Shown here piece by piece: positions 15,561 through 48,327 of a stretch of DNA of 64,000 nt. Under the pieces are notes generated by a model. The model did not search any database, was not told where the DNA came from, and saw only the letters and a program-made list of their open reading frames with translations. Every line of letters begins with the position of its first letter. Position 1 is the first letter of the stretch. Source of the DNA: Nemertoderma westbladi (Eukaryota > Animalia > Xenacoelomorpha); the NCBI GenBank assembly GCA_032718475.1, contig JAUCBJ010007510.1:1-64000 (forward strand). The letters are read 5' to 3'. A program made the position numbers and the translations under genes.

Positions 15561-15744
15561 ACTCCCTTACCCCGCCGCCTTCTAACTTACTTACTTCTTC
15601 TAACTTACTCCTACTACTACTTACTATCTACTTCTAACTATTATTTAATTATTTTTATTTTTATTTTTAATTAAATAATTAATTTTTTGTGGGAAGGGCG
15701 TCTCGCCCTCATTCCCACCCCCCTCAGTCCAAAACCTTGGACGA

Positions 15745-16905
15745 CTAAACTCTAAGGTGCCCCTTCTTCCAGTTGGCACACTCCCACTGCCCTCCTATAT
15801 GTCCTCTTACTCTTTGCCACACCCTCTTCGCCAATTCCACCTGACCAGGGATTGGCTCTCCCCCTTTCACCACCCCAAGGTTGGGTCTCTCCATCGTCTT
15901 CTTAACTAGCTCGTCTCCTGGCATCAAATCCCTGCTGCCCCCCGCCGGCAGAACGAACCGAAAGTGAAAGAACAGGCAGAACAGAAGGTACAACAGTAGT
16001 CCCGTCCCCCTCCATCCTGCCTTCCTTCTCGACTTCCCCCTTGTCGGTATGCCTCCAACCCGGACCTGCGTCTCTTCCGGACACTCCTCTGGACACTCCT
16101 CCAGACACTCCTCTAGACACTCCTCCCGACACTCCTCCGGGCACTCCCCCGGAGTGTTGTCCTCCGGACACCTCGCCGTCCGCTCCGCTCCATCTCCATA
16201 CCGATGCTTGTTGGGAAACCTACTCTCCTCTGCCCACTTTCTTACTGTCACCTCCCTATCTGGCTCTACTATCTCCTGTTTCTCCTCTTCGTCCTCTGCG
16301 CCTGCGGTGCCTGGTAACATGCACCCTGATGTCTCTGTCACACTGCATGGGATCTTAGTTTTAACTGGGCCGCTAAGCATCCACCCGAACGGCGTGAGGA
16401 TCGCCGTCGGATCCCGCTGCCTGTCTTCGCCGAAGACCGTCTTCGTTCTCTCGTGGGCCGTCGGGCAGTCCATCCCTACTATAATGGACACCTTCCTAAC
16501 GTCCACCTTTGGTATTGAGAAATCGATACCGTCCAGGAATCTATATTGTTCGACCTCAATGTTGGTTGGTCGCCTGGCGTTGATGTTTATCGATTCTATG
16601 ACGTGGATGGGGTCGATCGTCGCCCCATAGTCGTATCCCGGTGCAATCGCTGCTATCCTGCACCGCCCCGCCCTCGTCTCCAGGACCTCATCTTTACTCG
16701 AGACGGTAGTCACCGCCATTCTGTTCGGCCTCGTCTTTAGCCCTATCTCTTCGGCCACCCAGTTCTCCACCAGCGTGAAGGCTGCTCCGCTGTCGACCAG
16801 CATTAATGTCGTTACTGATCGACCGCCCTCTCCTGATATCTTCACTGGTACTACCCCGAGTAGTACTTTTCTCTTCTTCTCCTCTTCTGTCGTGCTTGTG
16901 GCCAT
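15745..16905 (-). pseudogene. Element 1 ORF1 C-terminal part: BEL/Pao-type aspartic protease, frameshifted from gag
   Basis: Active-site motif LVDSGA, SIIVGMD and ILTPFGWMLSGP as in BEL proteases. The equivalent region is in frame with gag in element 3. Confidence 0.85.
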
Positions 16906-19184
16906 GCCTGGCCTCCAGTCTCGGACTCTCTAGCTGCTGTTTCTCTACACTCTCCGGATCTGTGTCCTTCTACCACACATCGATGACATAGTCCGTTTGC
17001 GTCTGTGTAGGCTATACGATCTTGTTTGGGCAACGCTTGCCAGTGCTTACAACTCCTGGTCTTATGTGTTCCGTCCCGGTGTAATTGACATTCGAATCCT
17101 GGATTATAGCGTTCCCTGTATAGTCCCTCACGTATCGCGCGTAGGTTTATATGTACCGATTTAGTGTTTTGGTTGTCTGTACTCGGCCTACTGGGTATAT
17201 TGGGATTGTGTTTATTTATGGTGTTATTTTCTTTCTGTCCCTGCCACGGTGTGGCCCTACTACCAGCTAACTGTGGACTAGCAGTCCCCTGTGTGGCCGC
17301 ATGTGGTAGTGACTGTCCTACTCTCGAGAATGGATCTGTCGGATTATGTTCGGGTTCAGGCCTGTTGTATTCGGTCTTTGGTGCCTTCCCCAAACTATCC
17401 TCACTATAGACTGGGTCTGTTATTAATTCGGCTTCATAGTTGAGGAAGCTCGACATCTCTTCTAGGCCCGGTTCCGCACCCTTCTTCTCCCGTGTGGAGA
17501 AGGCGATCTTCCTCCACTTCCTTCGTAACCAGATCGGCAGTGCCTGCGCTATCGTGGTGATGTTGTTAGACGCGTTGAGTTCGTATGGTGCGTCTAGCGT
17601 CTTTAACACGATTAACGCCTTCTCGACCTTGTTTGCAAAGGTCCTTATGCTAACGGGATTGTCCTGTAGGCCATCCGATGTTATGCCTCTCAGGGTTTGC
17701 CGGATGATCTTGGCCGGGTGCCCGTATTCCCTATCTAGCGCCCGCCATGCTGTCGTGAAGCCGCCCTCGATGCCCTGGTATTGCCTCACGATGTCGTATG
17801 CTGGGCCTCCTGTATATACTTGCAGATATTTTAGGCACTCCGCCTGCGTCAAGTTCTTACTTAATATTTCGTTACTATACATGCGCCGAAACTGTAGATA
17901 TTCTTCCGGCCTACTCCCATCGAATTTAAATGGTTCCACAGGTGGTAACTCGATCCTAGTTTTTAATGCATCGATCAATGTGGCCATTCCCATCGCTTGC
18001 GCTTCTAATGGGTTCGATGGATGTTGTATAGTTTCTCCTATTGGGTGCGGTCCGTTCGTCCTATCTGTTGTTGATTTTATTTGTTGCGTCGGATATATCA
18101 TTGGGGGTAACGGCCCCCTCCATATTTCCGTGTCGCATGATCTGTTCTCGTCCAAGGGGTTCGATGTTCTTGCTCCTATTGGGGTATATTGTTGATATTG
18201 TGATGGGGGAATGTCACCCTGTCCCCCTCCCACCGGTATGTTTGGTACTGGGGTTGATGTTAATATATTGGGGCCCATACATCTATCTGCAATAATTCCC
18301 CCCTCCCCTGGATATATGTTGTGTCCCTGGAAATTATAGTCATGCTGCTGTACCGGTACCGATATAGGCCTATTCACTTCTTGCCTACCTACCGGTATGT
18401 ACTCCGCGACTTCCGGGTTTAATCCCGTCGTCCGCGCTACCCTATCGCCTACTCTATCTCTCCCAGCATGGCCTATAATAGTATGTGCAGTAAGGCCTAC
18501 AGTATGTCCTGCAGTCTGCATGTGCCCTTCCGAATCGAAGTTTATTCTTCGCGAATCTCGAATCTCCCCGCGACTACCGTACTCTCGATCGGCAGCTATA
18601 TCCCGTCGGGAAGCTTCTCTTCGATCCCCTATCCTGCTCTCGTCTTCGTATCGGTACGTCCTGTACCCCTCTCTTGGTGTGCGGTGCGTTTCTCCGGGGC
18701 GACGGCAATCTCCCGAAGTTCGACCCCACTGACTCCCTACCTCCATCTCTACTATCGACGGCTCGCTATCCGTCCTCGCTCTCCGGTTGCTCCTAGCAAC
18801 GACTCTTCTATTATCTTCCTTTCTTCTCTCTTCGACCTCTCGGTTAAACTCTGCTAATCTTCTTCTATCTTCGACCTCTCTATTATACTCTACTAATCTT
18901 CTCCTATCTTCGACCTCTCTATTAAACTCTACTAATCTTCTCTCTTCTGACTGGGCTCGACGTTCCGTCGCCCGCCCTCTCGCGACGTCAACCTGTCTCT
19001 CTCTGCTCGATCGCACGCCGCTGGGGATACTCGCAATCCCCCTATTACTCTCCGTCGCCGGGTGTTGCGGTTTACCTAATTCGGCCCGCGCATTATCCGC
19101 CGACGCCTGTGGGACACTCCCTGCCCCCCCTCTCTCGCTACTAATCCCTCGCGGTGGGGTGCCCGTAGCCCCCCCCCCCCCCAC
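16851..19184 (-). CDS. gag: Element 1 ORF1 middle part: BEL/Pao-type Gag (DUF1759-like capsid region plus zinc knuckles)
   Basis: LPPVEPFKFDG..EYLQF, LKYLQVYTGGPA, AWRALDREYGHP; knuckles CQLHRDGTHKTRSC and CHRCVVEGHRSGEC. Confidence 0.85.
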   Translation of the reverse strand: MGGGGATGTPPRGISSERGGAGSVPQASADNARAELGKPQHPATESNRGIASIPSGVRSSRERQVDVARGRATERRAQSEERRLVEFNREVEDRRRLVEYNREVEDRRRLAEFNREVEERRKEDNRRVVARSNRRARTDSEPSIVEMEVGSQWGRTSGDCRRPGETHRTPREGYRTYRYEDESRIGDRREASRRDIAADREYGSRGEIRDSRRINFDSEGHMQTAGHTVGLTAHTIIGHAGRDRVGDRVARTTGLNPEVAEYIPVGRQEVNRPISVPVQQHDYNFQGHNIYPGEGGIIADRCMGPNILTSTPVPNIPVGGGQGDIPPSQYQQYTPIGARTSNPLDENRSCDTEIWRGPLPPMIYPTQQIKSTTDRTNGPHPIGETIQHPSNPLEAQAMGMATLIDALKTRIELPPVEPFKFDGSRPEEYLQFRRMYSNEILSKNLTQAECLKYLQVYTGGPAYDIVRQYQGIEGGFTTAWRALDREYGHPAKIIRQTLRGITSDGLQDNPVSIRTFANKVEKALIVLKTLDAPYELNASNNITTIAQALPIWLRRKWRKIAFSTREKKGAEPGLEEMSSFLNYEAELITDPVYSEDSLGKAPKTEYNRPEPEHNPTDPFSRVGQSLPHAATQGTASPQLAGSRATPWQGQKENNTINKHNPNIPSRPSTDNQNTKSVHINLRAIREGLYRERYNPGFECQLHRDGTHKTRSCKHWQALPKQDRIAYTDANGLCHRCVVEGHRSGECRETAARESETGGQAWPQARQKRRRREKYYSG

Positions 19185-19337
19185 CCGCTACTTCTAACTT
19201 CACTATCTCTTACTACACTTCTGCGTCCCTCTTGTCGGACACTCTCTACCCCCTTTCTCTCGCCACTAATCTTCTGTGGTGGGGCGCCCGTAGCCCCCCC
19301 CCCCCCCACCCGCCACTTCTAACTTCACTACCTCTTA

Positions 19338-20920
19338 CTACACTTCTACACCCCTCTTGTGGGGCATTCTCTGCCCCCCCTCTCTCGCCGCTAATCTCAT
19401 GTGGTGGGGCGCCCGTAGCCCCCCCCCCCACCCGCCACATCTAACTTCAATATCTCTTACTTCGTCTCTACACCCCTCTCTAGTCGACACACTGTCTCTA
19501 CTGCGGCCGGGTCTATTCACCCCCGCCTCTCTCTCTACTACTGCGTGGCCTACCAGGCCCACCTCGGGTTGGCTCAACCCCGCCACTTCCTGCCTACTAA
19601 CTACGTGGCCTACCAGGCCGCCGTCTGCCGGGCTATACACGTCTGACGCGTTCACATTAATAGCACCATTCCCAATATTATTTGTTAAATCAATTAAATT
19701 ATTAGAATTTGAAACGGGATTATTATTTAAATTATTTAAGTTAGAATTATTATTATTTTCAAAATTTAAATTGCTATTCGAATTATTTGAATTATTTTGA
19801 TTATTCTGAATATTTGAATTAATATTATTATTTGAATTTAAACTTAAATTACTACTACCGGGTAAGATATTTCCTGTAATAAAGGGATTAGGGTTATTTA
19901 CTACGGTACTATTAATACCAATATTTCCTAACGCACTACTACTACCCCCCCCCCCCCCCCCCCCGCCCGTACGGTTACTGTATGTACTGTACGTGTACCG
20001 CACGCTCTGTTCTCTTGCCTCACGCTCTTCGCGTTCACTCTCTTGCTCCTTCCTTCTCCCCATTATCCACTCTAATTTCTCTCTAGTTCTCTCTAATATC
20101 TCTCTAGTTTTTAATTCATATGCTGCCAGATTTATCTCCTGTACCCTTCTTTCTTTTGCGGAGGATGTAGCAGACTTATCGGTTGCGACGGACTCCCGCC
20201 GCCCCTCCGTCCTACTAACTTTCCCCCGCTTTCTGGGGTCCTCGCTGACCGACGAGGCCGAATCCTCGGAGCTAACCTCGGATTCGCCCTCGTGCGGTCC
20301 CGCCCAACCCACTAACTTAACTTCCCTGGCATCGACTAAGTATGGCCCTATGTACACTACACCAGGCCCCATACCCCTACGTTCCCATAGCCCAAACAGT
20401 TCGAAGGCAACCCCTCTTGCTCTCTCCTCGGCCAGTTCTCCCTGCCCAGAACGCACTAGGTAATCAAAGTATCTGTTCGACTCACCTAGTCGTCTCCTCA
20501 ACTTCACCTGGTCTATCTCAGCCCCTCCTCTAGCTTCCTTCAGTTGTTCCCGGGTCGCGGCGTAGGCTCGTCGGAGCCGGACGACCCCGACGTCCTCGTC
20601 GTCGACATCTCCTCTCTCCCTCCGGGTTCGACGTCGTACCGTCGGCTCCACCATTACCGTTCCGGTGGGCCGTTCGTCGCCCTCGGCCTGTGGCTGGCCG
20701 GCGACATCGGCATATCGACCGCCGCCCTGTGTCGACTCGTCTCTCTCCTCCCCCGTCTCGCTCTCTCCTCTACTCGACTCGCTCTCTCGCTGTAGACGAC
20801 CCCCCACATCTTGGTTCGCATCGACCGGCGTCGTGGGTCCGTATCGTCTCGCCGTGGCCTCGTGGATCGTTAGATCGCCGTCCGGGGTCCGCGGCGGTGT
20901 CGTTTCTCTCTCTCGACTTA
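19338..20920 (-). pseudogene. Element 1 ORF1 N-terminal extension (Arg/Glu-rich, poly-Gly, Asn-rich); start codon apparently mutated to ATA
   Basis: Homologous to 51272-53647, 39283-40878 and 28099-29711 (VYIGPYLVDAR, TDKSATSSAKE). Frame breaks fall at C-homopolymers. Confidence 0.75.
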
Positions 20921-21052
20921 TGTTATCTTGGGCAACTTTGGACCTCGTTACTGTTAGGGCAGCTGCTTGGTCTTTGTTACTGTTAGGGCAGCTGCTGCTT
21001 TGTTACTGTGTTACTGGCAGTCGCAGTCTCAGGCAGCTTGGGATTTTGTTAC

Positions 21053-21620
21053 TGTGACGGGATCGGTCGACCCCGATTTATCCGGTTTGGTTGTTTGCTT
21101 ACGCGTCCCCGCCGTGTGTAAAAGGAGTTATTGTAATTCTCCCGATGATGTTAATAATATATGTCGGTAAGTATATGATAATATGAGATAATGAGATAAC
21201 ACAGTTAACGATGGTAATAGGCCTAAGTATACAGCAGTACTGATGGATGATGGTGGCGACGACGGTAACAAAGTCACCGCTCTGCTGCTCTGCCCTGACT
21301 GCACTGAGATAACTGAGGTGAATGAATAGCACGACTGGTAATATATTGCACGGTTTGGCCTTATTACTGTACCTAGTCGATGCTGTCCCCCCATTGGCTA
21401 ATATCCCACTTCTCGCCCTTTCACCTTCCCTGGTGTGTTTCCCGTTGCCCCTGTTGTTCTCTCTCTGTTAGGGGTTTGGCCCCTGACCCTTATTGTGTGT
21501 TTCTCCTTCCCACTTTATTGGGGTGACACGAGGTTGATATTGGTAATCAACCTCGTGCTCCCAATATTGCTTTACGGTTTACTTTATGGGGTTTGGTGAG
21601 GCGGAATTGATTCGTTAACA
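21053..21620 (-). repeat. Element 1 5' LTR (568 bp)
   Basis: Direct repeat of 13815-14384, followed by TSD CATAC. Confidence 0.95.
21311..21400 (-). promoter_or_regulatory. Putative LTR Pol II promoter: CCAAT, TATA-like TATATTA and initiator TCAGTT (+1 near 21314)
   Basis: On the minus strand TATATTA starts at 21345, 31 nt upstream of the A of TCAGTT. Element 3 has the same spacing (TATAA at 41265, TCAGTT +1 near 41235). CCAAT lies near 21393-21397. Confidence 0.6.
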
Positions 21621-27420: not shown

Positions 27421-27981
27421 TGTTAGCGTATTCAATTCCGCTAGCCAGCCCCACAAAGTAGGCTTTAAGCAATATTGGGAACACGAGGTTGATTGCCAAT
27501 ATCAACCTCGTGTCACCCCAATAAACGGGGACAACAGGCCCCAGGGGAACACACACAGCGGGGGTCAGAGGTTATACCTCCGGGAGGGAGAGAGTGACAG
27601 TAGCGGGGGGGGAAGAGAGTAAAGGGTGAGAAGTGAGTTATTAGCCAATGGGGGGGAAGCATCGACTGAGTAGTGCAATGCGGCCAACCGTGCAATATCT
27701 TACCAGTCACCATGTATATTCATTCACTTGTAGTAAGTCAGTTAGTAGGGACAGTACCGGAACTCTAATTACCGTCTCCGTCCGCTGTCAGAAATATATA
27801 TTATCATTACCAGTACACTACATCAAACGTCAACTATTCGTGCTATTACCATTTGTTATATTATATCCTTGAGCCTATATACACCGATCAATCAATAACT
27901 CAGAACTCTTTCACATACACACGGCGGGGACGCGTAGATTAAAAACCGGATAAACCGGGATCCTCCATGGATCCCGTCACA
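27421..27981 (+). repeat. Element 2 5' LTR (561 bp)
   Basis: Reverse-complement homologue of the other LTRs (CACGAGGTTGAT hairpin, CACGGCGGGGACGCGT, GGATCCCGTCACA end). Confidence 0.9.
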
Positions 27982-28098
27982 GTAATTAGATCCAACATCT
28001 GTCCTGAGTGATTAGATCGAGCAGCTGCCCTAGTAATTAGAACCAACACTGCTGCCCGAGACTGTGACTACCAGCCACCAATCTAAAGTAAAGATAAG

Positions 28099-29711: not shown

Positions 29712-30249
29712 TGTGACGGGATCCAGGAGGGATCCCGATTTATCCGATGTGGTATTTAGTCCACGCGTCCCCGCCGTGTATAAGAGTGAAATAAAGATAA
29801 CTGAGTTCTGAAGTTCGGTGTATAATAATAGGTTATAGGATATAGATATATTGTGAATTATACGGTAGGCGGGATACGGTAACTAAAGTCCCGTGATCCC
29901 CTAACTAAACTAATTGGCTGTACCCTACGCTAGCACTGCTGCACTGAGATAACTGAATCACTGATTAATAGGTTATTGGTTATATTGCACGGTGGCCTTA
30001 CTGCTACTCAATCGATGCCATTCCCCCCTCTGATTGGTTAATACCCTTGTTGGCGCCCCGTGGAGTATTCCCGTTCACTCCACCTGTTCTCCTTGGGTTA
30101 GGGGTTTGGCCCCTGACCCTCTATTGTGTGCTTCCTTCCCACTCTTATTGGGATGGCACGAGTTGGTTAATTGCCCAATCTCGTGGCTCCCAATATTGCT
30201 TATCGGCTTACAACTTTATGGGGTGTTGGCGGGATTGAATAAGTTAACA
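29712..30249 (-). repeat. Element 3 3' LTR
   Basis: Direct repeat of 40993-41530. Confidence 0.96.
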
Positions 30250-30964
30250 CTCCCCCCCATGCTATCTTCCCGGTAAGAAGATAGCATCAACCAAAAAAAG
30301 TGCGTTACAATCCCGCTGGATCCCGATCTAGTATCGGGTGTGGGGTGGAATTCTTTTCTCTAGGAGCCGGCTTTCCAGGCCGCCCCCTATGGGTATGATA
30401 ACGCTACCCTGTGTGCCTGGCGTCTCATGTCGGGCCGATCGCGCTCACCTCTTCACGCGATTTTTGTTTCCCCAACATTTTCGCCCTATCTCACCTTCAC
30501 CTTCACTCTCACCCTAACTCTCTCATACCCTAGGACCTCCTCGTCCCTCACTCAGCCTCTTATTCTCCCCCCCCACACTAGAATTGCGTTCGCACTCTCT
30601 CCGCACTTCGCACTCTTATTCCGATTCTCAACTCCACTTTGACTGTTTTATCTCTCCTGACGAACCTCCCCCCCTCTCTCGTGCCGTCGCACTCAAGAAG
30701 CGTGAAATTGTCAGTTGTCTCGTCCATAGTGCCATAGTCTGTTGTCCCCCAGTCCCAGTAGCTAATTGAGAAAGGTTGTATGACTATAGTACTTACTCCA
30801 AACGTATGTATTTTACTGCTAATCACTACGTACGTACATACGAATTGCACTTATATGGTTATTTGCATTAATTAAATTTATACTTAATAGTTCGTACGTT
30901 ACATGCGGCGCCTTCCAGGCGCACCACTTCCCAGTCTCAGTCTCATTCCCTCGTCTCCGGGAAC

Positions 30965-33480
30965 TTATCTGTTCCTCCTCACGTCCTCTTCCCTGGCCCG
31001 TTTCTTGGTTATCACCGCTCCTCTGGCATCATCCGCTTTCTGTTTCCGGACCTTCGCTGCCACTTCCTTGCTGATCCCGGTCGTCGGCTCCTTGGGCGCT
31101 GGTGTTATTAAAGCCCGATACCGCTTCGCCGGTGGCCCCTCAGAATGGCCTGGTTGTCTCCCTCGTGTGGCGTCCCATAGGATCATTTTCATTGCCTTTG
31201 GTACGTGTTCCGCCAAGAAATCCCTAAACTCCCTCCGGTTCTCTGGTGTCCACCTGTCCAGGTACCGTTGCGTGTTCATAACTCCGGCGAACGATGCCGC
31301 CGTAGCTACCTCTTGATAGGTAAACGGTAACCTTCGCTTTATGATTTCCATGTGGGTCTCCTGGTTTATGAGGAAGAAACCCCACTTGAACTCTTGGGCC
31401 TTCATGCGCTGGCGCGTCATGGCCCCGACGTCGGCCCACTCCTCGAACCTCGTGAACTTCTCCTCGTCGCTCATCCAGTCGCACTCGCGTCCGTAGTGCC
31501 CCCGAAAGTGGCACTTTGGACATCGGTTATGCAACCGTGGACACGCCCCCATCCTGTGACTTGGTTCTCTACAGTAGAGACAAAAGGTTCCCCGTTGGAA
31601 CCGGTATAGGCAGCTGCTTTCCTGATGGGTCTGTCTCCCACAGTAGTCGCAGCCGAGTACCAATGTCTCCCGTCCCACCTCGTCCTTCGTCCCAAGCGAT
31701 CTCCGCGGTCTATGGAGTCGCTGGTAGGCAAACTTCTCCACGTTGCTCTCCCTGTTTACGTCGATCTCTCCGCCCCTCTCGGGCATCGTCTCCCCGAATA
31801 CTATCCGTGGTGCCGTCCCCGGTTGCTCGCCCAACCTGATGGTGCTCCCCGCGAAATCCATCGCCGGCCCCTCGTGCACCCAGGTCCGCTTGCCGGATCT
31901 GTTCCAGAAGGCCCTCGCCCCACTGGCCGTCACCACCCTTCCGCCAACCCAGTCCGTGTCCGAGTGGCCTATCCTTTCGATGGGCGGCATCTCTCCGAAC
32001 TCGTCGTCGTCGTCCTCCTCTTCTGGTAGTGTCTCCAATCCCGGTATCCCGATGGATCCACTATGTCCCTTCCCGCCTTGGCTCTCGCCCGTAGCTCTCC
32101 ATCCCTCTAGCTCCCTTAACTTCCTTGGCGGTTGGTCGCCCTCGGCGCCCGCTGGTATGGGCATCGTTTGCAACCCCGACGTCGACTGTTTCGGCGATCC
32201 CACCGTCCATCCCAATTCTCGTCCTAGAGACTCCCCCGAACTCCCTGACGAAGTCCAATGAAGCTCGTCTAGGCCCGCCTGTTCCTCGAAGCCATAACTC
32301 TGTGTCCTGGCCTCCTCTTCCCTCTCCTCTGCCTCTATCCTCTCCCGTCTAGCGACTTCTTCCAGTCGCTTTGCTTCCCGTCTATCCATCTCTAGCTGCT
32401 CCCATCTCTGATACGGTGTATCTGTCTCCCCATCTACCAGATGTCGGCTGTTGTAGTACACCGACTCGCCCTTCAGCCCCGGGTGGTCTACCAGACCGTC
32501 AAAGGCCGTCTTAAAGGCTCTCCTGTAGCTTAGGGGTGATCCCGATAACAGAAATGCCCCTGGTTCCCTTTCGATAACTACGGTCATGAATAAGTTAAGC
32601 AAACTTATCATCATCCAGTCCTCCTGCAGGATATATCGCTTCTGATATACCTTTATCGCTCCTCTGCGAAACTGATATACCTCCTGCTTTCCCGGTCTCG
32701 CTCCCCACTTCAGCGAGTTCGCTAGTTCTGCTCCGTATTCTTCCCTAAACTTCCCCCAATCCATTGGTTTGTGGCATACGAGCCCCAATAATTGGCCCAT
32801 CGCCACCGCCCCGCATTGGCCTGAGTTCTCGACCACCCCCAATCCATCCGGTGCCGTCATAGCCATAAAGACTTTCTGCATATCCAGGAGGTTGGTGGCG
32901 TCCGGACCGATGATCCTCTCCGCGTCCTCGCGAATCGCCGATCCCACTTTCGTCGTCGACTTCTCTCTTACTAAGACTTGTACCGCTTTCGGCAGTCGGT
33001 CTAATTTCGGCCCGTCCTTCTTCCCATACGTCCCTAGGTCGAATAAGAAGAGTTACTGTGGAGTATGGTCCTGGCCGACCCTGCCGTTCCTCGTCTTGAA
33101 CCCGCTTCGTCCTCCACGGTTCCCTCGTCATCTAGGATCATATATCCTCCTCTGTTGACGGACTCTATGAATCTTTTCCAGTCCTTCCTCGGCGATTCCC
33201 TCGGATACTTCGGAATCCCGAACTTCGCTTCGTCCCCTTTCACCACGTAGTGGAAGTGTTGGAAGATCGCGTTGTCCAGCGACGGCGTCCCGTAGGTCCC
33301 GACCAACCGCTGTTCGTGCGCCTCCCGGAAGTGATCCTGCAGCGCTCGTGCCGCGTGACCCCTTTCCAACCTCTCGTAGTATCCTCTCGTCTTTTCCTCC
33401 GGGTGTCTTTCGGTGAAATCCACCAATATTTCTTTTCCTCCTGACTCCGCCTTTCTCTTCCTGATCAGCTTACTCGCCAT
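30965..33480 (-). CDS. Element 3 ORF2: putative DEDDy 3'-5' exonuclease (WRN/EXD/Mut-7-like) plus three CCHC zinc knuckles; ~845 codons if repaired, with one frameshift near 33050
   Basis: ExoI-like ILDDEG; LP..VQ.LV.EK.TTKVGSAIREDA.RI, which resembles the WRN-exo KVG..I..D..L motif; LLD; ExoIII-like Q..YILQED. Knuckles CDYCGRQTHQESSC, CLYCREPSHRMGAC and CPKCHFRGHYGREC. A second diverged copy lies at 45293-47716. Confidence 0.7.
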
Positions 33481-33989
33481 TCCGAACACTACACTCGCTC
33501 ACCTGCAGGGTGGTGCCTTACCAAGGCGCAATACAGATGAGTGATGTATTAAGATGTTTCGTACAGTTCGATAATGGCCTACTTTTCTACTTAACTGCGC
33601 CTTTCAAGCTTAATTTAATCTAATTAATTTCGGAGCTAGTAAATCAGCCTAATTTACAATTTCCGTCCGTTACTTTTATTATGTTCTAGAACGACTTTCC
33701 TTGTGTTACCACTATTTTCCGATTTTTAGCCCTATTCTATTTATTTATTTATTTTGCTTTGATTCTACTGTCTTACTACTTACTACTGCCTATGGATTTT
33801 ATTCTATTCTCTCTCTGATCCATATTCTGGCCTACTCTGTGGGCCTATGCAGTACAGCAGTATGCGTCGTGTGGCCACACGATTTATCCAGCTGCACTCA
33901 TATGCCCCCCTCTCGCTACTAACTCTACTTACTGCTAACTAATATCTATATCCTATTTACCCCTTTTACCTCTTACTCTCTCTCTCTAA

Positions 33990-34610
33990 CTAATGGTACT
34001 ACGTACCCTCTAACTCTAACTCTAACTAGGTACTACGTACCTACTAACTCTCTAACTATCGGTACTACGTACCCTCTAACTCTAACTCTAACTAGGTACT
34101 ACGTACCTACTAACTCTCTAACTATCGGTACTACGTACCCTCTAACTCTAACTCTAACTAGGTACCACGTACCTACTAACTCTAACTATCGGTACTACGT
34201 ACCCTCTAACTCTCCAACTATCGGTACTACGTACCCTCTAACTCTAACTCTAACTAGGTGCTACGTACCTACTAACTCTCTAACTATCGGTACTACCTAC
34301 CCTCTAACTCTAACTCTAACTAGGTATTACCTACCTACTAACTCTAACTATCGGTACTACGTACCCTCTAACTCTCCAACTATCGGTACTACGTACCCTC
34401 TAACTCTAACTAACTATTGGTACTACGTACCCTCTAACTCTCTAGCTCTAGGTACTACGTACCTACTAACTCTAACTAACTATTGGTACTACGTACCCTC
34501 TAACTCTCTAGCTCTAGGTACTACGTACCTACTAACTAACTAACTTTAGGTACTACGTACCTACTAACTAACTAACTAACTCTAGGTACTACGTACCTAC
34601 TAACTAACTA
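33990..34610. repeat. Array of GGTAC-TAC-GTACC mini-hairpins with CTAACT spacers, between ORF1 and ORF2 of element 3
   Basis: Roughly 20 copies are directly visible. Similar arrays lie at 49540-49890 and 54680-55280. Confidence 0.9.
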
Positions 34611-34769
34611 ACTATTATTTTTATTTTATTTTATTTTTATTTGTGTGGGAAGGGCGTCTCGCCCTCAATCCCACCCCCCTCAGTCCAAAACTTGGACGAC
34701 TAAACTCCACTCTAACTCCGCTCTAAGGTGCTCCTTCTAAGAGACAGGTAACACCTCTGCCCGCACCTT

Positions 34770-37700
34770 TTACGGATCTAACTCTTCCATCCCAGTCCAA
34801 CCTGTTGGACAACTCAGCGACCCAAGGGGTGATTCCTCCAGCAGGCAACTCTCCCACTGCCCCCCTATAGGTTCTCTAATTCTTCGCTCCACTCTCCTTG
34901 TCAATTCGATAGGTGGTCTTTTCTCCTGTTTTGGCAAATGCTGTCTCCTATTTATGTTTCTGATCTCGTGGTCGTCCCTTGGCGGCAAAGTGCCACCCTT
35001 CAACGTGTCACCCGGCGGTATAATGCCGCCCCTGTTCTTCTCCTTAATTTTAGATGCCACCTCTGTTGGCCTCCCCCTTAATATGTGTGCTGGCATTAAA
35101 GGCTTCAACGACCCCCGTTCGTCCTTCGGTATACACGATGTCTGCCCATGTAATGCCCCCTCGCACTCTGTCGGTTCCGCGTGCATACGCAGCACGCCTC
35201 CTACTCTCCCGCCTCCTTTGTCCACCATATGTTTATTCATGGGCTTCTCTGCCCCTGGTCTGATCGTCTCACATCTTCTCCCTTTCCCTCTTGTATTCTT
35301 ACTCGGCTTCCCCCTTGTCGGTATGCCTCTCAACCGGACCGGCGTCTCTTCCGGACGCTCCTCTGGACACTCCACCGGACACTTCTCCGGTTTGTCCTCC
35401 CGACACTCCACCGTCCGCTCCTCTCCATCTCCATACCGATACTTGCTGGGACCCTTATTCCAACCCATCGCCTCTAGGTCTTCCGCATCCATACCATTCT
35501 CCTCCGCCCACTCTCTTGGTGTTGCTTCTACTTCTAGCTGTCTACCACTATTGCCCATCTCTGGCCTCTCCTCTATTTCGTCAGTTCCTGGCATCATGCA
35601 TCCTGAGCTCTCGGACACATGGAATGGTATATTACTCTTAATTGGGCCTGTCAGTGTCCACCCGAATGGTGTTAATATTGCCACCGGGTCACTCTGCTTG
35701 TCTTCGCCGAAGACCGTTTGCATTCTCTCGTGGGCTGTTGGGCAGTCCATGCCTACTATGATGGATACCTTCCTAACGTCCACGTCTGGGATTGAGAAGT
35801 CAATGTTGTCCAGGAATTTGTATTGCTCGACCTCGATGTTGGTTGGCCGCCTGGCATTGATGTTAATTGACTCTATTACTTGGATGGGGTCGATGGTTGC
35901 CCCATAATCGCATCCTGGTGCCACTGCTGCAATTGCGCACCGTCCTGTCCTCATCTCTAGGATCTCGTCTTTGCTAGAGATGGTTGTCACCGCCATCCTG
36001 CTTGGCCTCGTTCTCAACCCTATTTCTTCGGCTACCCATTCCTCAACTAATGTGAAGGCAGCTCCACTATCAACCAGCATTAGTGTTGTTACTGATCGAT
36101 TGCCTTCCCCGATCACTCGTACTGGTACTACTCCAAGTAGCACTGTTCCTCTCTTCTTCGCCCCTACTGTGCTCGTTGCCATCGTCTGGCCTCTCCTTTG
36201 GCCAAACTTGACCGGCTTCTCTAGGCATTCCCTGGCCTTGTGTCCACTCTTCACACATCGCGAGCAGATTTTATTGCTCGACGCGTAATCTATCTGGTCT
36301 TGCCTCGGTAGCGCCTGCCAGTACCTGCAATTCATAGTTTTATGAAGCGCATTTGCGTGTAGCTGGCATTTGCTCTTTGGGTCGTAGCCCTCTTTATACA
36401 ATGCATTGCGTATCGCAGTTATATTCGTACCAAAGTCCCTACTATTCTTATTGACTGGATTTGGCCTACTGGACGTACTGGGGTTATGTTTATTCATGTC
36501 GTTATTGTTCCCCTGTCCGTTCCATGATGTTGTCTTATCTTCGTTTGCCTGTGGACTTGCAGTCCCCTGCGTCGCTGCGTATGGCAATGATTGTCTGAGC
36601 CTCGGCAATGCGTTTGATGTATTGTGCTCTGGTTTGGGCCTGTAGTGATCTGTCTTTGGTCCCTTTCCCAGGCTATCTTCACTATAGACTGGGTCCGTTA
36701 TTAGTTCAGCCTCGTAATTTAAGAAGTTTGACATTTCTTCTAAACCTGGTTCCGCACCCTTCTTGTCTCGGGTGGAGAAAGCGATCTTCCTCCATTTGTT
36801 GCGCAGCCAGCTCGGTAGTGCCTGCGCTATCGTGGTGATGTTATTGGACGCGTTGAGCTCGTATGGCGCATCTAGCGTCTTCAGCACGATCAGCGCCTTC
36901 TCGACTTTGTTAGCAAACATCTTAATGCTAACGGGATTATCCTGTAGGCCACCCGATGTTATGCCTCTCAGCGTTTGCCTGATGATCTTGGCCGGGTGCC
37001 CGTATTCCCTATCCAGTGCCCGCCATGCTGTCGTGAAGCCGCCCTCTATTCCCTGATATTGCCTCACGATGTCGTATGCTGGGCCTCCCGTGTATACTTG
37101 TAGATACTTTAGGCACTCCGCCTGCGTCAAGTTTTTTGTTAGTATATCGTTACTATACATTCGCCGAAACTGTAAGTATTCTTCCGGCCTGCTCCCATCG
37201 AATTTGAACGGTTCCACGGGTGGTAATTCGATCCTCGTTTTCAACGCATCGATCAACGTGGCCATCCCCATTGCCTGCGCTTCTAATGGATTCGACGGGT
37301 GCTGTATAGTTTCCCCTGTCTGGTGCGGTTCGTCCGTCCTATTTCTTGATCTTCTCTGACTCGGATATGTCATCGGGGGTAGCGGCCCCCTCCATATGTC
37401 TGTATCACACGACCTGTTTTCATCTAGGGGTCTCGTTGTTCTTGTTCCTGTCGGGGTATATTGTTGATATTGTGATGGGGGAATGTCACCCTGTACCCCC
37501 CCCACCGGTATGTCTGGTACTGGGGTTGATGTTAATATGTTGGGGCCCATACACCTATCCGCAATAATTCCCCCTTCCCCTGGGTATATGTTATGTCCCT
37601 GCATGCTGTAGTCATACTGCTGTGCTGGTACCGGTATAGGCCTATCAGCTTCTGGCCTACCCGCCGGTATGTATTCCGCGACTTCCGGGTTTAATTCCGT

Positions 37701-38255
37701 CGTTCGCGCTATCCTATCGCCTATATATCCTCTCTCAGTATGGCCTATGGTATGTGCAGTAAGACCTACAGTATGCCCTACAGTCTGCATGTGTTGCTCG
37801 GGATCGAAGTTTATTCTTCTCGAATAATCCTCCCCGCGGCTACCGTATTCTCGATCGGTAGGTATATTCCGTCGGAAAGTTTCTCTTCGACCCCCCTCCC
37901 CACTGTTTTCATCTTCGTACCGGTACATCGCGTACCCCTTTCTCGGCGTGTAATGCGTCTCACCGGATCGCATCCCTCCGGGGCGACGGCAATCTCCCGG
38001 AGTCCGACCCCACTGACTCTCCGTTCTCATCTCGACTATCGACGGCTCGCTGTCCGTCCTCGCTCTTCTATCTTTTGCGGCGATACTTCTACTACTCTCT
38101 TCCTCTCTTCTCCTATCAGTGGAATATTCCCGCTCACGAGATCTCTCGTCGACCTCCCGGTTAAACCCCACTGTTCTTCTTTCCTCCTCTGATCGGGCTC
38201 GACGCTCCGTCTGCCCTCCCGCGACGTCAACCTGTCTTTCTCTGCTCGATCGCAC
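34770..38255 (-). CDS. gag: Element 3 ORF1 main part: Gag, zinc knuckles, aspartic protease and a low-complexity C-terminal tail; no RT
   Basis: 1161-aa open frame containing the BEL Gag motifs, CQLHANALHKTMNC, CSRCVKSGHKAREC and LVDSGA. It ends without any RT motif. Confidence 0.9.
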   Translation of the reverse strand: MRSSRERQVDVAGGQTERRARSEEERRTVGFNREVDERSREREYSTDRRREEESSRSIAAKDRRARTDSEPSIVEMRTESQWGRTPGDCRRPGGMRSGETHYTPRKGYAMYRYEDENSGEGGRRETFRRNIPTDREYGSRGEDYSRRINFDPEQHMQTVGHTVGLTAHTIGHTERGYIGDRIARTTELNPEVAEYIPAGRPEADRPIPVPAQQYDYSMQGHNIYPGEGGIIADRCMGPNILTSTPVPDIPVGGVQGDIPPSQYQQYTPTGTRTTRPLDENRSCDTDIWRGPLPPMTYPSQRRSRNRTDEPHQTGETIQHPSNPLEAQAMGMATLIDALKTRIELPPVEPFKFDGSRPEEYLQFRRMYSNDILTKNLTQAECLKYLQVYTGGPAYDIVRQYQGIEGGFTTAWRALDREYGHPAKIIRQTLRGITSGGLQDNPVSIKMFANKVEKALIVLKTLDAPYELNASNNITTIAQALPSWLRNKWRKIAFSTRDKKGAEPGLEEMSNFLNYEAELITDPVYSEDSLGKGPKTDHYRPKPEHNTSNALPRLRQSLPYAATQGTASPQANEDKTTSWNGQGNNNDMNKHNPSTSSRPNPVNKNSRDFGTNITAIRNALYKEGYDPKSKCQLHANALHKTMNCRYWQALPRQDQIDYASSNKICSRCVKSGHKARECLEKPVKFGQRRGQTMATSTVGAKKRGTVLLGVVPVRVIGEGNRSVTTLMLVDSGAAFTLVEEWVAEEIGLRTRPSRMAVTTISSKDEILEMRTGRCAIAAVAPGCDYGATIDPIQVIESININARRPTNIEVEQYKFLDNIDFSIPDVDVRKVSIIVGMDCPTAHERMQTVFGEDKQSDPVAILTPFGWTLTGPIKSNIPFHVSESSGCMMPGTDEIEERPEMGNSGRQLEVEATPREWAEENGMDAEDLEAMGWNKGPSKYRYGDGEERTVECREDKPEKCPVECPEERPEETPVRLRGIPTRGKPSKNTRGKGRRCETIRPGAEKPMNKHMVDKGGGRVGGVLRMHAEPTECEGALHGQTSCIPKDERGSLKPLMPAHILRGRPTEVASKIKEKNRGGIIPPGDTLKGGTLPPRDDHEIRNINRRQHLPKQEKRPPIELTRRVERRIREPIGGQWESCLLEESPLGSLSCPTGWTGMEELDP

Positions 38256-38381
38256 GTCGCTGGGGATACTCGCAATCCCCCTATTACTTTCCGTCGCCGG
38301 TTGTTGCGGTTTACCTTGTTCGGCCCTCGCATTGTCCGCTGACGGCTGTGGGACACTCTCTGCCCCCCCCCCCTCTCGCCG

Positions 38382-40878
38382 CTAACTTTCTGTTGTGGGG
38401 TGCTCGTAGCCCCCCCCCCACTCGCTACATCTAACTTCGCTACCTCTCTCCCCGCTATTATATACCTCTCTAGTCGACACATCGACCCTACTGCGGTCGG
38501 GCCCATTCACCCCCGCCTCTCCCTCTGCTATTGCGTGGCCTACCAGGCCCTCTACTCCCTGCCTACCAACTACGTGGCCTACCAGGCCCTCAGCTTCCTG
38601 TCTACTAACTACGTGGCCTACCAGGCCCTCTGCTCCCTGTTTACTAACTACGTGGCCTACCAGGCCCTCTGCTCCCTGTCTACTAACTACGTGGCCTACC
38701 AGGCCCTCAGCTTCCTGTCTACTAACTACGTGGCCTACCAGGCCCTCTGCTCCCTGTTTACTAACTACGTGGCCTACCAGGCCCTCTGCTCCCTGTCTAC
38801 TAACTACGTGGCCTACCAGGCCCTCTGCTCCCTGTCTACTAACTACGTGGCCTACCAGGCCCTCTGCTCCCTGGTTACGTAGGCCCGACGTGTTTACATT
38901 AATAGCACCCATATTGGAAACGGAATTAATTTGCTCATTTGAAACAAAATCATTTGTATTATTCTGCGCGACTACGTTATCTGAATTATTTTGTAAATTC
39001 GGGCTAAGATCATTATTTGAATTATTCGAATTATTCTGTGTAATTGCGTTATTTATGTTATTTTGCAGGTCCGAATTCGAGTTATTATTTTGATTATTTG
39101 AATTATTTTGCGTAACTACATCAATATTAGGATTATTTTCTACATTAACACTGGGATTGTTCTGATTTAAATTTAAATTACTACCACTAGGCAAAGTATT
39201 TCCTGCAACAAAGGTTTGATTAGTGTTATCCCATACGGTACTATTAATATCAACAATGTCTACTGTACCATTATTATTATTATTACCCCCCCCCCCCCCC
39301 CCCGCTCGTACGGTCGCACCAGTCTTGAGTCTGTCGTGCGGTCCCTGTCAGTGGGGTATTAATAAATGTATCTACGGCCCCTGGCTCCTCAAAAATACTC
39401 GAGCCGGCCCCGCTTTCAGACGGCAACACTCGGACCAATTCCAGCTCGTGCGCCCGTCTAATCTTATTTTTTGCCGATACACCTTGGCGTTTCTCTAATT
39501 CCCTTAACTCTCGCTCAGCCTTTGCCCCTCTCTCCTCACTCTCCTGGCTGTCCTGTCTGGCCGACTCTACTACACTCCTAGCGTTCTCCCTTCGTCTCGC
39601 CTCACGTTCTTTGCGTTCCTTTTCCTTTCTTGCCTCATATTCCTTGCGTTCCTTTTCCCTTCTTGCCTCATATTCCTTGCGTTCCTTTTCCCTTCTCGCC
39701 TCACGTTCCTTGCGTTCCTCGTCCTCCCTTGCCTCACGCTCTCTGCGTTCCCTTTCCTCCCTAGCCTCACGCTCTCTACACTCCTTTTCCTCTATTTCGT
39801 CACTCTCCCTAAGGCTCCTCAAAGCCCTTTCGACCCTCTCACCATTCTCTTTAATCAATGCCGCTTCCCTCGCTAACCGCGCTCTCCCCTCCTCTAGCCG
39901 TTCCTCCATTTCCTTCTGACCTTGCTCTGCCACGTCGAGGCGGTATGCGGCACCTATCTCTCTCACCACTCTTTCTTTCGCGGAGGATGTAACAGACTTA
40001 TCGGTTACGACGGACTTCCCCCGCTTTCCCGACCTACTAACTTTCCCCGGCCTCCCGGAGCTTTCTCCGACCGACGAGGCCGAATCCTCGGGGTTAACCT
40101 CGGATTCGCCCCCTTCGAGTCCCCTCCAACCCACTGGTTTTACTCCCCGGGCATCGACCAAGTATGGCCCTATGTACACTGGCGCTACACTAGGTTCCAT
40201 ACTCCCACACTCCCATAGTTCAAACAGTTCACCGGCTATCCTTTCTGCTCTCTCCCCGGCCAGTTCTCTCTGCCCAAAACGTATTAGGTAATTTAAGTGT
40301 CTATCCGACTCACCTAGTCGCTTTCTCAGTCTCACCTCGTCTACCTTCGCCCCTTCCTTCTTGGCGTCGCTTATCAGCTTCCGGGTCGCGTTGTAGGCCC
40401 GTCGAAGTCGCTCAGAAACCCCGACGTCCTCGTCGCCGACCTCTCCTCCGTCCCTCCGGGTTCGACGTCGTACCGGCGGCTCCACCGTCGCCGTTCCGGT
40501 GGGCCGTCCGTCGCCCTCGGCCTGTAGCTGGCCGGCGACATCGGTACCGATCTCTCCTCCGTCTCTTCGTGTCCGACGTCGCACCGTCGGCCCCACCGTC
40601 GCCGTTTCGGTGGGCCGCTCGTCGCCCTCGGCCGGTAGCTGGCCGGCGACATCGGCGCGCCGTTCTCCGTCCCGTGTCGACTCATCTCCCTCTCCCTCCG
40701 TCTCGCTCTCTCTCTCTCTTGGCTCGACTTCGGGTTCCAGGCCCTCCTCGTCCTGTGCTTCCGGTTCGCCCGTTATCGATGGCTCCGGCGTCGTGGGCCT
40801 GTATCGTTTGGTCGCGGCCTCGCGGATCGTTAGGTCTTCGTCCGGGGTCCGCGTTGGTGTCTCGCCCGATTCACTCAT
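38382..40878 (-). CDS. Element 3 ORF1 N-terminal extension (coiled-coil ER repeats, poly-Gly, Asn-rich, 13-aa repeats); frame breaks at C-homopolymers
   Basis: ORF pieces 39283-40878 and 38382-39194 are collinear with the uninterrupted 51272-53647 frame of element 4. Confidence 0.75.
38535..38872 (-). repeat. 39-bp coding tandem repeat, about 8-9 copies, encoding GAEGLVGHVVSRQ
   Basis: Unit CTACGTGGCCTACCAGGCCCTCTGCTCCCTGTCTACTAA is directly visible. Confidence 0.92.
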
Positions 40879-40992
40879 CTCGTTTGTGGCTGATGATTCG
40901 GCTAGCTAGGTTGCAGTTCTTAGAGTTTAACTAGGGCGGTAGCTCGGTTTAGTTACTGTGTTTAGCTGGGGAAACAACACCGTTTTAGTTAC

Positions 40993-41530
40993 TGTGACGG
41001 GATCCAGGAGGGATCCCGATTTATCCGATGTGGTATTTAGTCCACGCGTCCCCGCCGTGTATAAGAGTGAAATAAAGATAACTGAGTTCTGAAGTTCGGT
41101 GTATAATAATAGGTTATAGGATATAGATATATTGTGAATTATACGGTAGGCGGGATACGGTAACTAAAGTCCCGTGATCCCCTAACTAAACTAATTGGCT
41201 GTACCCTACGCTAGCACTGCTGCACTGAGATAACTGAATCACTGATTAATAGGTTATTGGTTATATTGCACGGTGGCCTTACTGCTACTCAATCGATGCC
41301 ATTCCCCCCTCTGATTGGTTAATACCCTTGTTGGCGCCCCGTGGAGTATTCCCGTTCACTCCACCTGTTCTCCTTGGGTTAGGGGTTTGGCCCCTGACCC
41401 TCTATTGTGTGCTTCCTTCCCACTCTTATTGGGATGGCACGAGTTGGTTAATTGCCCAATCTCGTGGCTCCCAATATTGCTTATCGGCTTACAACTTTAT
41501 GGGGTGTTGGCGGGATTGAATAAGTTAACA
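40993..41530 (-). repeat. Element 3 5' LTR
   Basis: Direct repeat of 29712-30249, followed by TSD TAGAA. Confidence 0.96.
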
Positions 41531-41535
41531 TAGAA

Positions 41536-45292: not shown

Positions 45293-47716
45293 CAGCTCAC
45301 CTAGCCTCCTTAGCGGGTGATCGCCCTCAGCCCCCGCTGGTATGGGTGCCGCCTGCGATCCCGATGTCGACTGTTTCGGTGATCCCACCATCCATCCCAG
45401 TTCTCGCCCTAGAGACTCCCCCGAACTCCCTGACGACGTCCAACGAAGTTTGTCTAAGGCCGCCTGTTCTTCGAAGCCGTAGTTCTGGGCCCTAGCCTCC
45501 TCCTCCCTTTCTTCTGCCTCTCTCCTCTCCTGTCTGGCGATTTCTTCCAATTGCTTCGCTTCTCGTCTATCCGCCTCTAGCTGCTCCCATCTCTGATATG
45601 GCGTATCTACGTCCCTGTCTACTAGATGTCGGCAGTTATAGTATACCGACTCGCCCTTCAGCCCCGGGTGGTCTACCAGACCCTCGAAAGCCGTTTTAAA
45701 GGCTCTTCTGTAGCTCAGGGGTGACCCCGATAGCAGGAATGCCGTTGGTTCTTTCCCAATGACGACGGTCATGAATAGGTTTAGCAAACCCATCATTTTC
45801 CAGTCCTCCTGCAGGATATATCGCTTCTGATATACCTTTATCGCTCCTCTTCGGAATTGATACAACTCTTGTTTCCCTGGTCTCGCTCCCCACTTCAGCG
45901 AGTTCGCTAACTCTGCTCCGTACTCTTCTCTGAACTTCCCCCAGTCCATTGGTTTGTGACACACGAGCCCCAATAGCTGGCCCATCACCACCGCTCCACA
46001 ATGGCCTGCGTTCTCCACTAGTCCCAACCCATCTGGTGCTGTCATAACCATGAAGACCGTCTGTGTATCCAGAAGGTTGGGGGTGTCCGGTCCGATGATT
46101 CTCTCCGCATCGTCGCGGATCGCCGATCCCACTTTCGTCGTCGACTTCTCTCTCACTAGGGTTTGCACCGCCTTCGGCAACCGGTTCAATTTCGGCCCGT
46201 CCTTCTTCCCATACGTTCCCAGATTGAACAGGAAAATATCACCATTTGGCGCGGCCAAATGTAGGAGTATGGTTCTGGCCGACCCCGCCGATCCTCTCCT
46301 CGAACCCTCCTCGTCTTCCACGGATCCTTCGTCGTCTAGGATCATGCATCCTTCCCTGCTGACAGACTCTACGAACCTCTTCCAATCTTTCCTCGGTGGC
46401 TCCCTCGCGTACTTCGGAATCCCGAACTTCGCCTCGTCTCCCTTCACCACGTAGTGGAAATGCTCGAAGATCGCGTTGTCCAGCAACGGCGTCCCATAGG
46501 TCCTGACCAGTCGCTGTTCGTGCACCTCCCTGAAATGGTCCTGCAGTGCTCGCGCCCCGTGACCTCTCTCCAACCGCTAGTAGTATCCCCTTGTCTTCTC
46601 TTCCGGATACTACTACTACTACTAGGATCGGCATGCTGCATTGCAGCTGCATTTTTAAGAATGCTGTGCCGGCTTGTCAACAAAATTGCACCGCCACAAC
46701 TCCCTATCACCCATGACATTTGCTAGATCATCCGCATCTTTAAGACCAGTGTCCTTTAAGATGCGTCTCAAGAAAGTCATGGGCTGTCCACCATGCTTAT
46801 TCACTCCATGAGGCTGCCAAAGTACAAGATTATGCACTGGCTGGTCCTCACGGCGAAAGCAATGTCCTGCAAAGCAGAGGCGATTTTGTTCTAGTGTCAA
46901 GCTTGGGGGAACCAATGAGACACCTCCAATGTTATATAGTGTCTGGTTGGAGATGTGTGCATTGTACTTGACACAATGAACCTGGCGTAGCATTCTTGTG
47001 AATGTGCCATCCAGAGATTTGGTGTCCTCAGCAGTTAGAGCCCAGCATGGACTCCCGTAGAGGAGTACTGGAACTACTGCTGCTCTAAATAATCGGACCT
47101 TAAGTTTCCGATTAATTCTCGGTGACTTCCAAATCCTGGAAAGCCTATTCAAGGCTGCCCATGCCTTTCCCTTACGTATTCGAAGGTCCTCACCTGACTT
47201 CCGGATCCATGATCCCAGGTAACAGAAGTCGTCGACATGCTCAAGCATACCATCCTTTGAGCTTATGCACATCCGATCAGAGACTTGCTGAGGACTTTCA
47301 AAGTTAACTGTCAGAATTTTGGTCTTTCTGGAGTTAATAAAAAGACCAACACTAGAAGCAGCATGTTCTAATGAGCTGAGGAGCCGTTGTGCTCCCTCTA
47401 ATGATTCTGAGAGTACTCCTAAGTCATCAGCAAAGTCTAGATCAGTTAGGTACTTGGCAGGATTTCCTCGACTTCTGGAGCCAGTAGGTGGAGTTATCAT
47501 CACCCCATCATCATTATGATGATCTAAGGACATGCGTAGAACATAGTCAACCACAATAATGAATAAGAATGGTGCAAGTGTGTCTCCTTGGAGGACGCCC
47601 CATAACACTTCGAATGGTTCTGTGTCACCGTCAACAGGATGCCTCTTGGTAAAATCCACCAGTATCTCCTTTCCTCCTGACTAAGCCTTTCTCTTCCTGA
47701 TCAGTTTCCCCGCCAT
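45293..47716 (-). pseudogene. Element 5 ORF2 (exonuclease-like domain; early TAG, RTE insertion, C-terminal knuckles lost)
   Basis: MAGKLIRKRKA*SGGKEILVDF, then after the RTE: ILDDEG..TILLHLAAPNGDIFLF..LPKAVQTLVREKSTTKVGSAIRDDAERI..YQKRYILQEDW. Confidence 0.75.
46609..47636 (-). mobile_element. 5'-truncated RTE-type non-LTR retrotransposon (RT C-terminal half, ORF ends at 46655)
   Basis: GVLQGDTLAPFLFIIVVDYVLR, LTDLDFADDL, FCYLGS, VLLYGS..W; short 3' UTR ending in an (AGT)n tail; flanking GGAT duplication at 46605-46608 and 47637-47640. Confidence 0.9.
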
Positions 47717-47784: not shown

Positions 47785-48327
47785 TGTGACGGGATCTACG
47801 GATCCCGGTTTATCCGTTGGGTTTTCTATCCACGCGTCCCCGCCGTGTGTGAAAGGTAAAAGAGTTCTGATGTTCGGTAATATGTATAAAGGTATAATAT
47901 AGTCTGATAGTTGATATAGTATAGTACGACACTTTACCGGTAGATAAGTATGATGGCGGTAGCGGACGGTGACAGAAGTCCCCGTTCCACCCTACTGATC
48001 TGACTGAGTAAACTAAACTGAATAGGGAAGCACCAATAGGTAATATATGTACTGCACAGTTGGCCATATTACTGTACCTAGTCGATGCTGTCCCCCCATT
48101 GGCTAATATCCCACTTCTCGCCCTTTCACCTTCCCTGGTGTGTTTCCCGTTGCCCCTGTTGTTCTCTCTCTGTTAGGGGTTTGGCCCCTGACCCCTATTG
48201 TGTGTGTCTCTCCTTCCCACTCTATTGGGGTGACACGAGGTTGATATTGGTAATCAACCTCGTGCTCCCAATATTGCTTTACGGCTCACTCTATGGGTTT
48301 GTGTTAGCGGAATTGGATAAGCTAACA
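47785..48327 (-). repeat. Element 4 3' LTR
   Basis: Direct repeat of 53712-54254. Confidence 0.96.

Follow-up and report, generated by a model that had tools for sequence, protein, structure and literature searches.

The window analysed here, 64,000 nucleotides of Nemertoderma westbladi contig JAUCBJ010007510.1, carries a long open reading frame, ORF2, within an LTR element of the BEL/Pao type (element B), and a second copy of ORF2 in a related element (element D). The carrier, its relatives and the two ORF2 copies are laid out as follows.

29712..41530, minus strand: element B, a pol-less BEL/Pao-type LTR element of 11.8 kb, inserted into the related element E
40993..41530, minus strand: 5' LTR of element B, TGTT...CACA
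34770..40905, minus strand: gag-protease region of element B in three frames, with a DUF1759 Gag domain, a zinc knuckle and an aspartic protease
33960..34615: tandem-repeat spacer between gag-protease and ORF2 (TRF period 66, 9.5 copies)
30965..33480, minus strand: ORF2 copy 1, from the ATG at 33480 to the stop at 30965, in the same sense as gag
29712..30249, minus strand: 3' LTR of element B, with a G-rich polypurine tract upstream
45293..47716, minus strand: ORF2 copy 2 in element D, with its start at 47716, stops near the start and an inserted LINE fragment, ending before the knuckles
about 46607..47636, minus strand: 3' fragment of a non-LTR retrotransposon reverse transcriptase with a (TAG)n tail, about 1 kb, inside ORF2 copy 2 (RVT_1, Pfam E 4e-10)
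45737..46399, minus strand: unbroken exonuclease-like domain of ORF2 copy 2
13815..21620, minus strand: element A
47785..54254, minus strand: element C
27421..27990, plus strand: stretch of element E compared with A, B and C

A BEL/Pao-type carrier without pol

The two LTRs of element B show 0 mismatches in 538 bp, and the element has a 5-bp target duplication, TAGAA. Contigs of two DNA runs join position 29706 to 41531, skipping element B, a joint that may stem from other copies of E because B sits inside that repeat. Pfam identifies DUF1759 (E 3e-10) and Asp_protease_2 (E 2.9e-5) in element B, and the protease is 31% identical (E 2e-30) to that of remnant F, which bears a Peptidase_A17 region. 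No reverse transcriptase, RNase H or integrase was found in element B by Pfam, and tblastn with the pol-bearing remnant F matched only gag and protease. The relatives A, C and D likewise end after the protease. With gag and protease and without pol, the family is therefore non-autonomous and BEL/Pao-derived. Set against the description of Belpaoviridae (PMC8742986), element B has the DUF1759, BEL-type Gag and a related protease between TG...CA LTRs, and the polypurine tract, but it lacks the pol functions (reverse transcriptase, RNase H and integrase) and a tRNA-Arg or tRNA-Gly primer site, and its extra ORF is not env-like.

Remnant F itself (about 23000-27420, plus strand), a BEL/Pao element in decay, still shows gag, protease, RT-like and Peptidase_A17 parts; element E has inserted into it and cut it. 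It is possibly a relative of the helper element; a search of the window assigned no LTR or primer site to it. Elements A and C are young, with 4 and 1 LTR mismatches, respectively, and 5-bp target duplications, and both consist of gag-protease only, without pol and without ORF2. Because these relatives moved recently without it, ORF2 is an accessory gene. Many diverged pieces of the element are present in the two DNA runs, where 33,971 and 14,830 contigs matched, counts that do not represent copy number.

ORF2 and its two broken copies

The sequence-only reading had described a second sense ORF in an env-like position, present in two copies. The long ORF, its gag sense on the minus strand and the second copy starting at 47716 are all as described, but neither copy is intact. 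ORF2 copy 1 does lie after gag-protease and before the 3' LTR of element B; however, no pol precedes it, and ORF2 has no hydrophobic, transmembrane or fusion segment (maximum 19-residue Kyte-Doolittle mean 1.4), which sets it apart from env.

From N to C terminus, copy 1 encodes an N-terminal part, an exonuclease-like domain (about 32560-33190), an acidic, low-complexity linker, three CCHC knuckles, a C-terminal domain and a basic tail. A short deletion near 33055 shifts the frame within the exonuclease-like part, and because of this frameshift the motif LLHLAAPNGDIFLF, one of the series of exonuclease motifs in the sequence-only reading, is found only in copy 2; the other motifs of that series are present, with Glu at the ExoIII position. 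Copy 2 has two in-frame stops close to its start, is interrupted by the LINE fragment, and lacks knuckles because it is cut off at a rearrangement junction near 45293. No indel is listed at a 15% share over the copy-2 domain, which hints that the copy-1 frameshift is not common. Element B inserted recently with an already frameshifted ORF2, or ORF2 broke soon after.

The zinc knuckles of ORF2 lie as follows.

31610..31651, minus strand: CX2CX4HX4C zinc knuckle, ORF2 copy 1
31541..31582, minus strand: CX2CX4HX4C zinc knuckle, ORF2 copy 1
31481..31522, minus strand: CX2CX4HX4C zinc knuckle, ORF2 copy 1

All three, reported earlier as perfect, are exact, and of the two window copies only copy 1 carries them. 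Six-frame translation of the whole window contains eight CX2CX4HX4C motifs, the other five being in gag frames. The ORF2 knuckles weakly resemble retroviral nucleocapsid (E 0.035) and the knuckles of Trypanosoma brucei RNase D (E 0.22). Downstream of the knuckles (31034-31480, minus strand) lies a domain of about 110 residues, for which domain-library searches returned no family match, followed by a basic tail with 21 K/R in 80 residues.

In both copies a CAG/GTGAGC stretch lies about 22 nt upstream of the ATG (33480-33510 and 47716-47745, minus strand); together with the GT(A/G)A that begins the leader after each 5' LTR, these could be splice sites for a subgenomic ORF2 message. At 45264-45293, 30 nt of the ORF2 3' end are inverted, and an inverted 2.4-kb pair of elements E and D (42823-45243 versus 55721-58129, 97.9% identity) adjoins the junction that truncates copy 2.

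Purifying selection on ORF2

The many nucleotide differences between the copies, with a similar protein, had been read as suggesting selection, and the codon comparison bears this out. Over the 418 codons compared, which cover the parts shared by both copies, the knuckle half being present in only one window copy, amino-acid identity is 86%, with dN 0.07 and dS 0.63. The resulting dN/dS of 0.11 (bootstrap 0.07-0.16) is far from 1, although dS may be inflated, as it is higher than the divergence seen in the aligned non-coding spacer (56/355); the differences per codon position (42, 29 and 122) are independent of that. For the nuclease domain (206 codons) dN/dS is 0.09 (0.05-0.15), and elsewhere in ORF2 it is 0.07 in the N-terminal part and 0.15 after the domain. 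Values for gag and protease, 0.085-0.24, are comparable to that of the nuclease domain. Across the family, 26 of the 40 listed differences over the domain are silent and 27 fall at third positions (56 more lie beyond those listed); two of those listed are at motif codons, and both are silent. ORF2 is under purifying selection.

A WRN/EXD2-like exonuclease fold is likely

The sequence-only reading had likened ORF2 to WRN, EXD2 and Mut-7. Library searches lend this no help: ORF2 has no match in Pfam, NCBIfam, PHROGs or PDB sequences, and DNA_pol_A_exo1 (PF01612) is absent from the matches listed at E up to 10, the Pfam cut-off not being reached. A search of 5.8 billion proteins (251-802 aa; 803-2290 aa) found no ORF2 relative, nor did tblastn against plasmids and phages. 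Three matches among 1.84 billion representatives were all to one short stretch in bacterial repeat proteins and were set aside as chance, as was a 31-residue match in a bacterial mobile element (locus L001) from scans of viral, genome and metagenome contigs. Because the collections searched are mostly prokaryotic, these blanks say little about animals. An unguided single-sequence AlphaFold model of the domain (pLDDT 35.5) gave no usable fold match.

Since library searches were blank and the single-sequence model unusable, a WRN-like profile was built from real PF01612 proteins. The domain tests used the unbroken copy-2 domain, with the copy-1 pieces as separate alignment rows in some. A first profile combined 11 standalone Bacteroidota exonucleases and finds its best PDB matches in WRN, Nibbler and EXD2. 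When the 370 ORFs of the window are scored against it, the two ORF2 copies take the top two ranks (E 0.014 for the first, 0.26 for the second), and none of 2000 shuffles attains the ORF2 score. With a 22-sequence profile, copy 2 reaches E 0.0018 over 76 colinear residues and copy 1 ranks fourth. Alignment of the domain to a WRN-like DEDDy profile with hhalign gives a probability of 86.7% and a score of 41.9 for a local match of 68 columns, against null maxima of 22.6 (200 shuffles) and 20.5 (49 real protein pieces). In a reciprocal search of 355 targets, 24 of the top 25 were DEDDy-labelled, a label borne by 143 of the 355, 120 of these from one close family.

The residues of the copy-2 domain that fall on catalytic positions are these.

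46334..46336, minus strand: D81, ExoI
46328..46330, minus strand: E83, ExoI
46109..46111, minus strand: D156, ExoII
45818..45820, minus strand: Y253, ExoIII
45806..45808, minus strand: E257, ExoIII

The global hhalign alignment (probability 30%) places D81-x-E83 on ExoI, D156 on ExoII, and Y253-x3-E257-x-W on the Y-x3-D-x-W of ExoIII. At the end of the first strand, D81 and E83 align to D-T-E in both aligners and are kept in both copies, and D156, after the KVG strand, occupies an invariant column (20/20 rows). In ExoIII, Y253 aligns but the Asp position is taken by Glu (E257), with an Asp one residue later. Both copies retain an acidic residue at each of the four catalytic positions, as well as the Tyr. 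On these alignments the domain is best described as DEDDy-like and is not a canonical DEDDy member.

A guided model, from an alignment with 18 bacterial exonucleases, rises to pLDDT 62.5, with residues 124-175 lacking resolved structure, and matches RNase D, T. brucei RNase D (TbRND), WRN, Nibbler and EXD1 at Z 9-10. Because the alignment imposes the fold, these matches are circular and indicate compatibility only. The order helix-strand-strand-strand-helix is common to the poor unguided model and the guided one. We consider a WRN/EXD2-like DEDDy exonuclease fold likely on the profile evidence, and stop short of certainty because the hypothesis dictated which family was tested and a profile score of 12 bits would fall short of significance in a whole-library search. 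If the fold is correct, the retained acidic residues make it probable that the domain is also catalytically active.

The family probably primes from its own LTR

The four related elements A, B, C and E were compared at the site where a tRNA primer would be expected. Two stretches of element B are central.

40984..40992, minus strand: primer-site position of element B, 9 nt complementary to its own LTR, with no TGG tRNA-type site
41160..41168, minus strand: LTR motif that pairs with it (LTR positions 363-371), the candidate self-primer

A tRNA primer site is described for Belpaoviridae (ICTV profile, PMC8742986). Judged from the start letters, the sequence that follows the 5' LTR opens with GT(A/G)A in all four elements, with neither a TGG primer site nor the 18-nt tRNA-Arg/tRNA-Gly primer site of that family. 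The first nucleotides after the 5' LTR are exactly complementary to the element's own LTR (LTR positions 344-371) over 8, 9, 9 and 9 nt in A, B, C and E, respectively. Primer-site letters differ between elements and cross-element pairing extends over only 4-6 nt (background 0.15-0.75%); by these sequences the self-priming signature co-varies among A, B, C and E. In all four elements, a second helix with the invariant GGCGGGGACG can form beside the primer helix, and a hairpin can form that ends 5 nt before the LTR end. In the folded leader the primer helix has a probability of 0.89 in B, 0.96 in E, 0.01 in A and 0.11 in C. A primer made at a splice junction finds no counterpart in the four LTRs, none of which holds a junction-spanning complement of at least 8 nt.

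In Tf1 self-priming, the complement at the RNA 5' end is freed by cleavage, an RNase H step. The family probably self-primes in a Tf1-like manner. Self-priming is described for the Tf1/Tj1, Tcn1 and TAR elements (PMC4600332, PMC6317226). As in Tf1/Tj1, the primer site here complements the element's own LTR and not a tRNA, but those elements belong to the Ty3/gypsy or Ty1/copia lineages, and the present family has a candidate primer complement of 8-9 nt and no RNase H of its own (PMC4600332, PMC6317226). Neither this signature nor the absence of pol from the carrier figured in the sequence-only reading.

Relation to known nuclease cargo

Exonuclease cargo is not new to LTR elements. According to Rodriguez, Kenefick and Arkhipova 2017 (PMC5408684), the bdelloid rotifer LTR retrotransposons Juno and Vesta, and the Athena/Terminons, have a DEDDy-like ORF3 with a DEED motif, for which roles in RNA-end processing and in silencing are both raised; PMC5718144 and PMC6338049 restate the finding. 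Like ORF2, the Juno and Vesta gene is an exonuclease-like accessory ORF before the 3' LTR with one catalytic Asp replaced by Glu, and its function, too, is putative. Compared by description, the rotifer elements have full pol (PR-RT-RH-IN), belong to other LTR lineages and carry DEED. The signature here is DEDE, in a carrier that combines BEL/Pao gag and protease with the absence of both pol and a tRNA primer site, and the text available on the rotifer ORF3 mentions no triple CCHC array (PMC5408684). T. brucei RNase D (PMC7797062; PDB 7C42) has a DEDD domain followed by four tandem CCHC knuckles that bind RNA upstream of the cut, a combination called very unusual in its report. With the guided model it shares the top rank with other structures (Z 9.9, rmsd 3.5, 168 aligned), a circular result, and the knuckle match is weak. 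That enzyme is cellular and mitochondrial, with four knuckles and a short linker, in contrast to the roughly 250 residues between domain and knuckles here, and apart from the fold nothing points to shared ancestry. ORF2 has its motifs in the same order as the WRN/EXD2/Nibbler (Mut-7)/bacterial WRN-like exonucleases of PF01612 and can be aligned with them from LLHLA to LLD, but identity to the Bacteroidota proteins is only about 17-25%, insertions follow ExoI and precede both the ExoII helix and ExoIII, and Y-x3-E stands in place of Y-x3-D.

The sequence-only reading knew of no such cargo in BEL/Pao elements. Our literature searches, most subscription journals and Repbase lying outside their scope, found none for BEL/Pao either, and a term search of the BEL/Pao survey PMC3118150 did not return 'exonuclease'; for LTR elements in general, Juno and Vesta are a precedent. 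DEDDy cargo in LTR elements is already published (PMC5408684); what is new is that the carrier is BEL/Pao, that the cargo is of the WRN-like type and that it has a triple knuckle. Nuclease cargo of LTR elements would thereby extend from rotifer lineages to BEL/Pao, which suggests that 3'-5' exonucleases were captured repeatedly and independently, and hence a recurring need in the retroelement life cycle. The rotifer env and GDSL ORF3s that were sampled show no departure from neutrality (PMC5408684), in contrast to the clear purifying selection on ORF2.

What the ORF2 protein may do

Direct observations on ORF2 are its place in the element, the selection on it, its knuckles and its pol-less carrier. 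Our leading reading, which we hold tentatively, is that ORF2 is a conserved accessory gene whose product is likely to be a WRN/EXD2-like 3'-5' exonuclease that would trim the ends of RNA inside the ribonucleoprotein particle of the element itself. A gene held at a dN/dS of 0.1 in a mobile element must, we infer, mostly benefit the copy that encodes it, and it is this selection logic that would place the trimming within the element's own particle. Gag and protease are under similar constraint, so the family likely makes a particle of its own and borrows Pol. By analogy with T. brucei RNase D, the three knuckles would grip single-stranded RNA and pass its 3' end to the exonuclease active site.

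An active exonuclease could instead be a counter-silencing factor: in cells that express the element, it would shorten or destroy piRNAs or siRNAs, or be a competitor of host Nibbler/Mut-7/EXD1. Nibbler and EXD1 belong to this fold class, ORF2 is dispensable in cis (A and C do without it), as expected of a trans-acting factor, and the contig matches in the two DNA runs indicate a large family. Yet a shared benefit would be harder to hold at a dN/dS of 0.1, the nucleocapsid-like knuckles suggest the element's own RNA, and among rotifer elements ORF3 type shows no clear link with copy number according to Rodriguez et al. (PMC5408684). We judge counter-silencing possible, if unlikely.

In Egalitarian and EXD1 the exonuclease fold is used for RNA recognition or transport, and ORF2 could similarly be a catalytically dead RNA-binding adaptor. 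The Glu at the ExoIII Asp position would suit this, as would selection about as strong outside the domain as within it, and inactive DEDD derivatives, Maelstrom and EXD1, act in piRNA biogenesis according to PMC5408684. However, neither copy has lost the Tyr or the acidic residue at any of the four catalytic positions, and the rotifer cargo, with its own Asp-to-Glu change (DEED), is regarded as possibly active in the same paper. A dead adaptor seems improbable to us.

The self-primer is the most specific candidate substrate of the putative enzyme, made concrete by the co-occurrence of the self-priming signature with ORF2. A pol-less, self-priming BEL/Pao family might have captured a knuckle-bearing WRN-like exonuclease that shortens the RNA from its 3' end as far as the 9-bp primer duplex and also acts in trans for relatives without ORF2. 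If so, a retroelement primer would be made by an element-encoded exonuclease, and not by a tRNA or RNase H alone. We rate this version of RNA trimming as more doubtful still, because the signature persists in A and C, which have no ORF2, and because a trimming enzyme would likely be halted early by the second helix. Least probable is that the domain is not exonuclease-derived and resembles one by chance, ORF2 being a second nucleocapsid-like or other accessory protein: blank library-wide searches and an unguided model that matches nothing would fit this, but the controlled profile tests and three separated motifs in correct order and spacing speak against it.

Because the carrier family lacks pol, the role of ORF2 should be easier to isolate, and since an unbroken natural domain exists in copy 2, the question raised by the 2017 work, whether such cargo is active and on what, is directly testable.

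Other elements in the window

A non-LTR retrotransposon ORF of 1173 codons lies at 58235-61756 on the plus strand, with a partial tandem copy, 99.4% identical, at 62068-63754. It has a PHD-like Cys/His region, endonuclease-like and RT-like motifs, and an N-terminal GDIETNPGP, which we take to be a 2A-like peptide. Positions 1-13700 form a satellite array of 49-bp units in which GC skew is strong.
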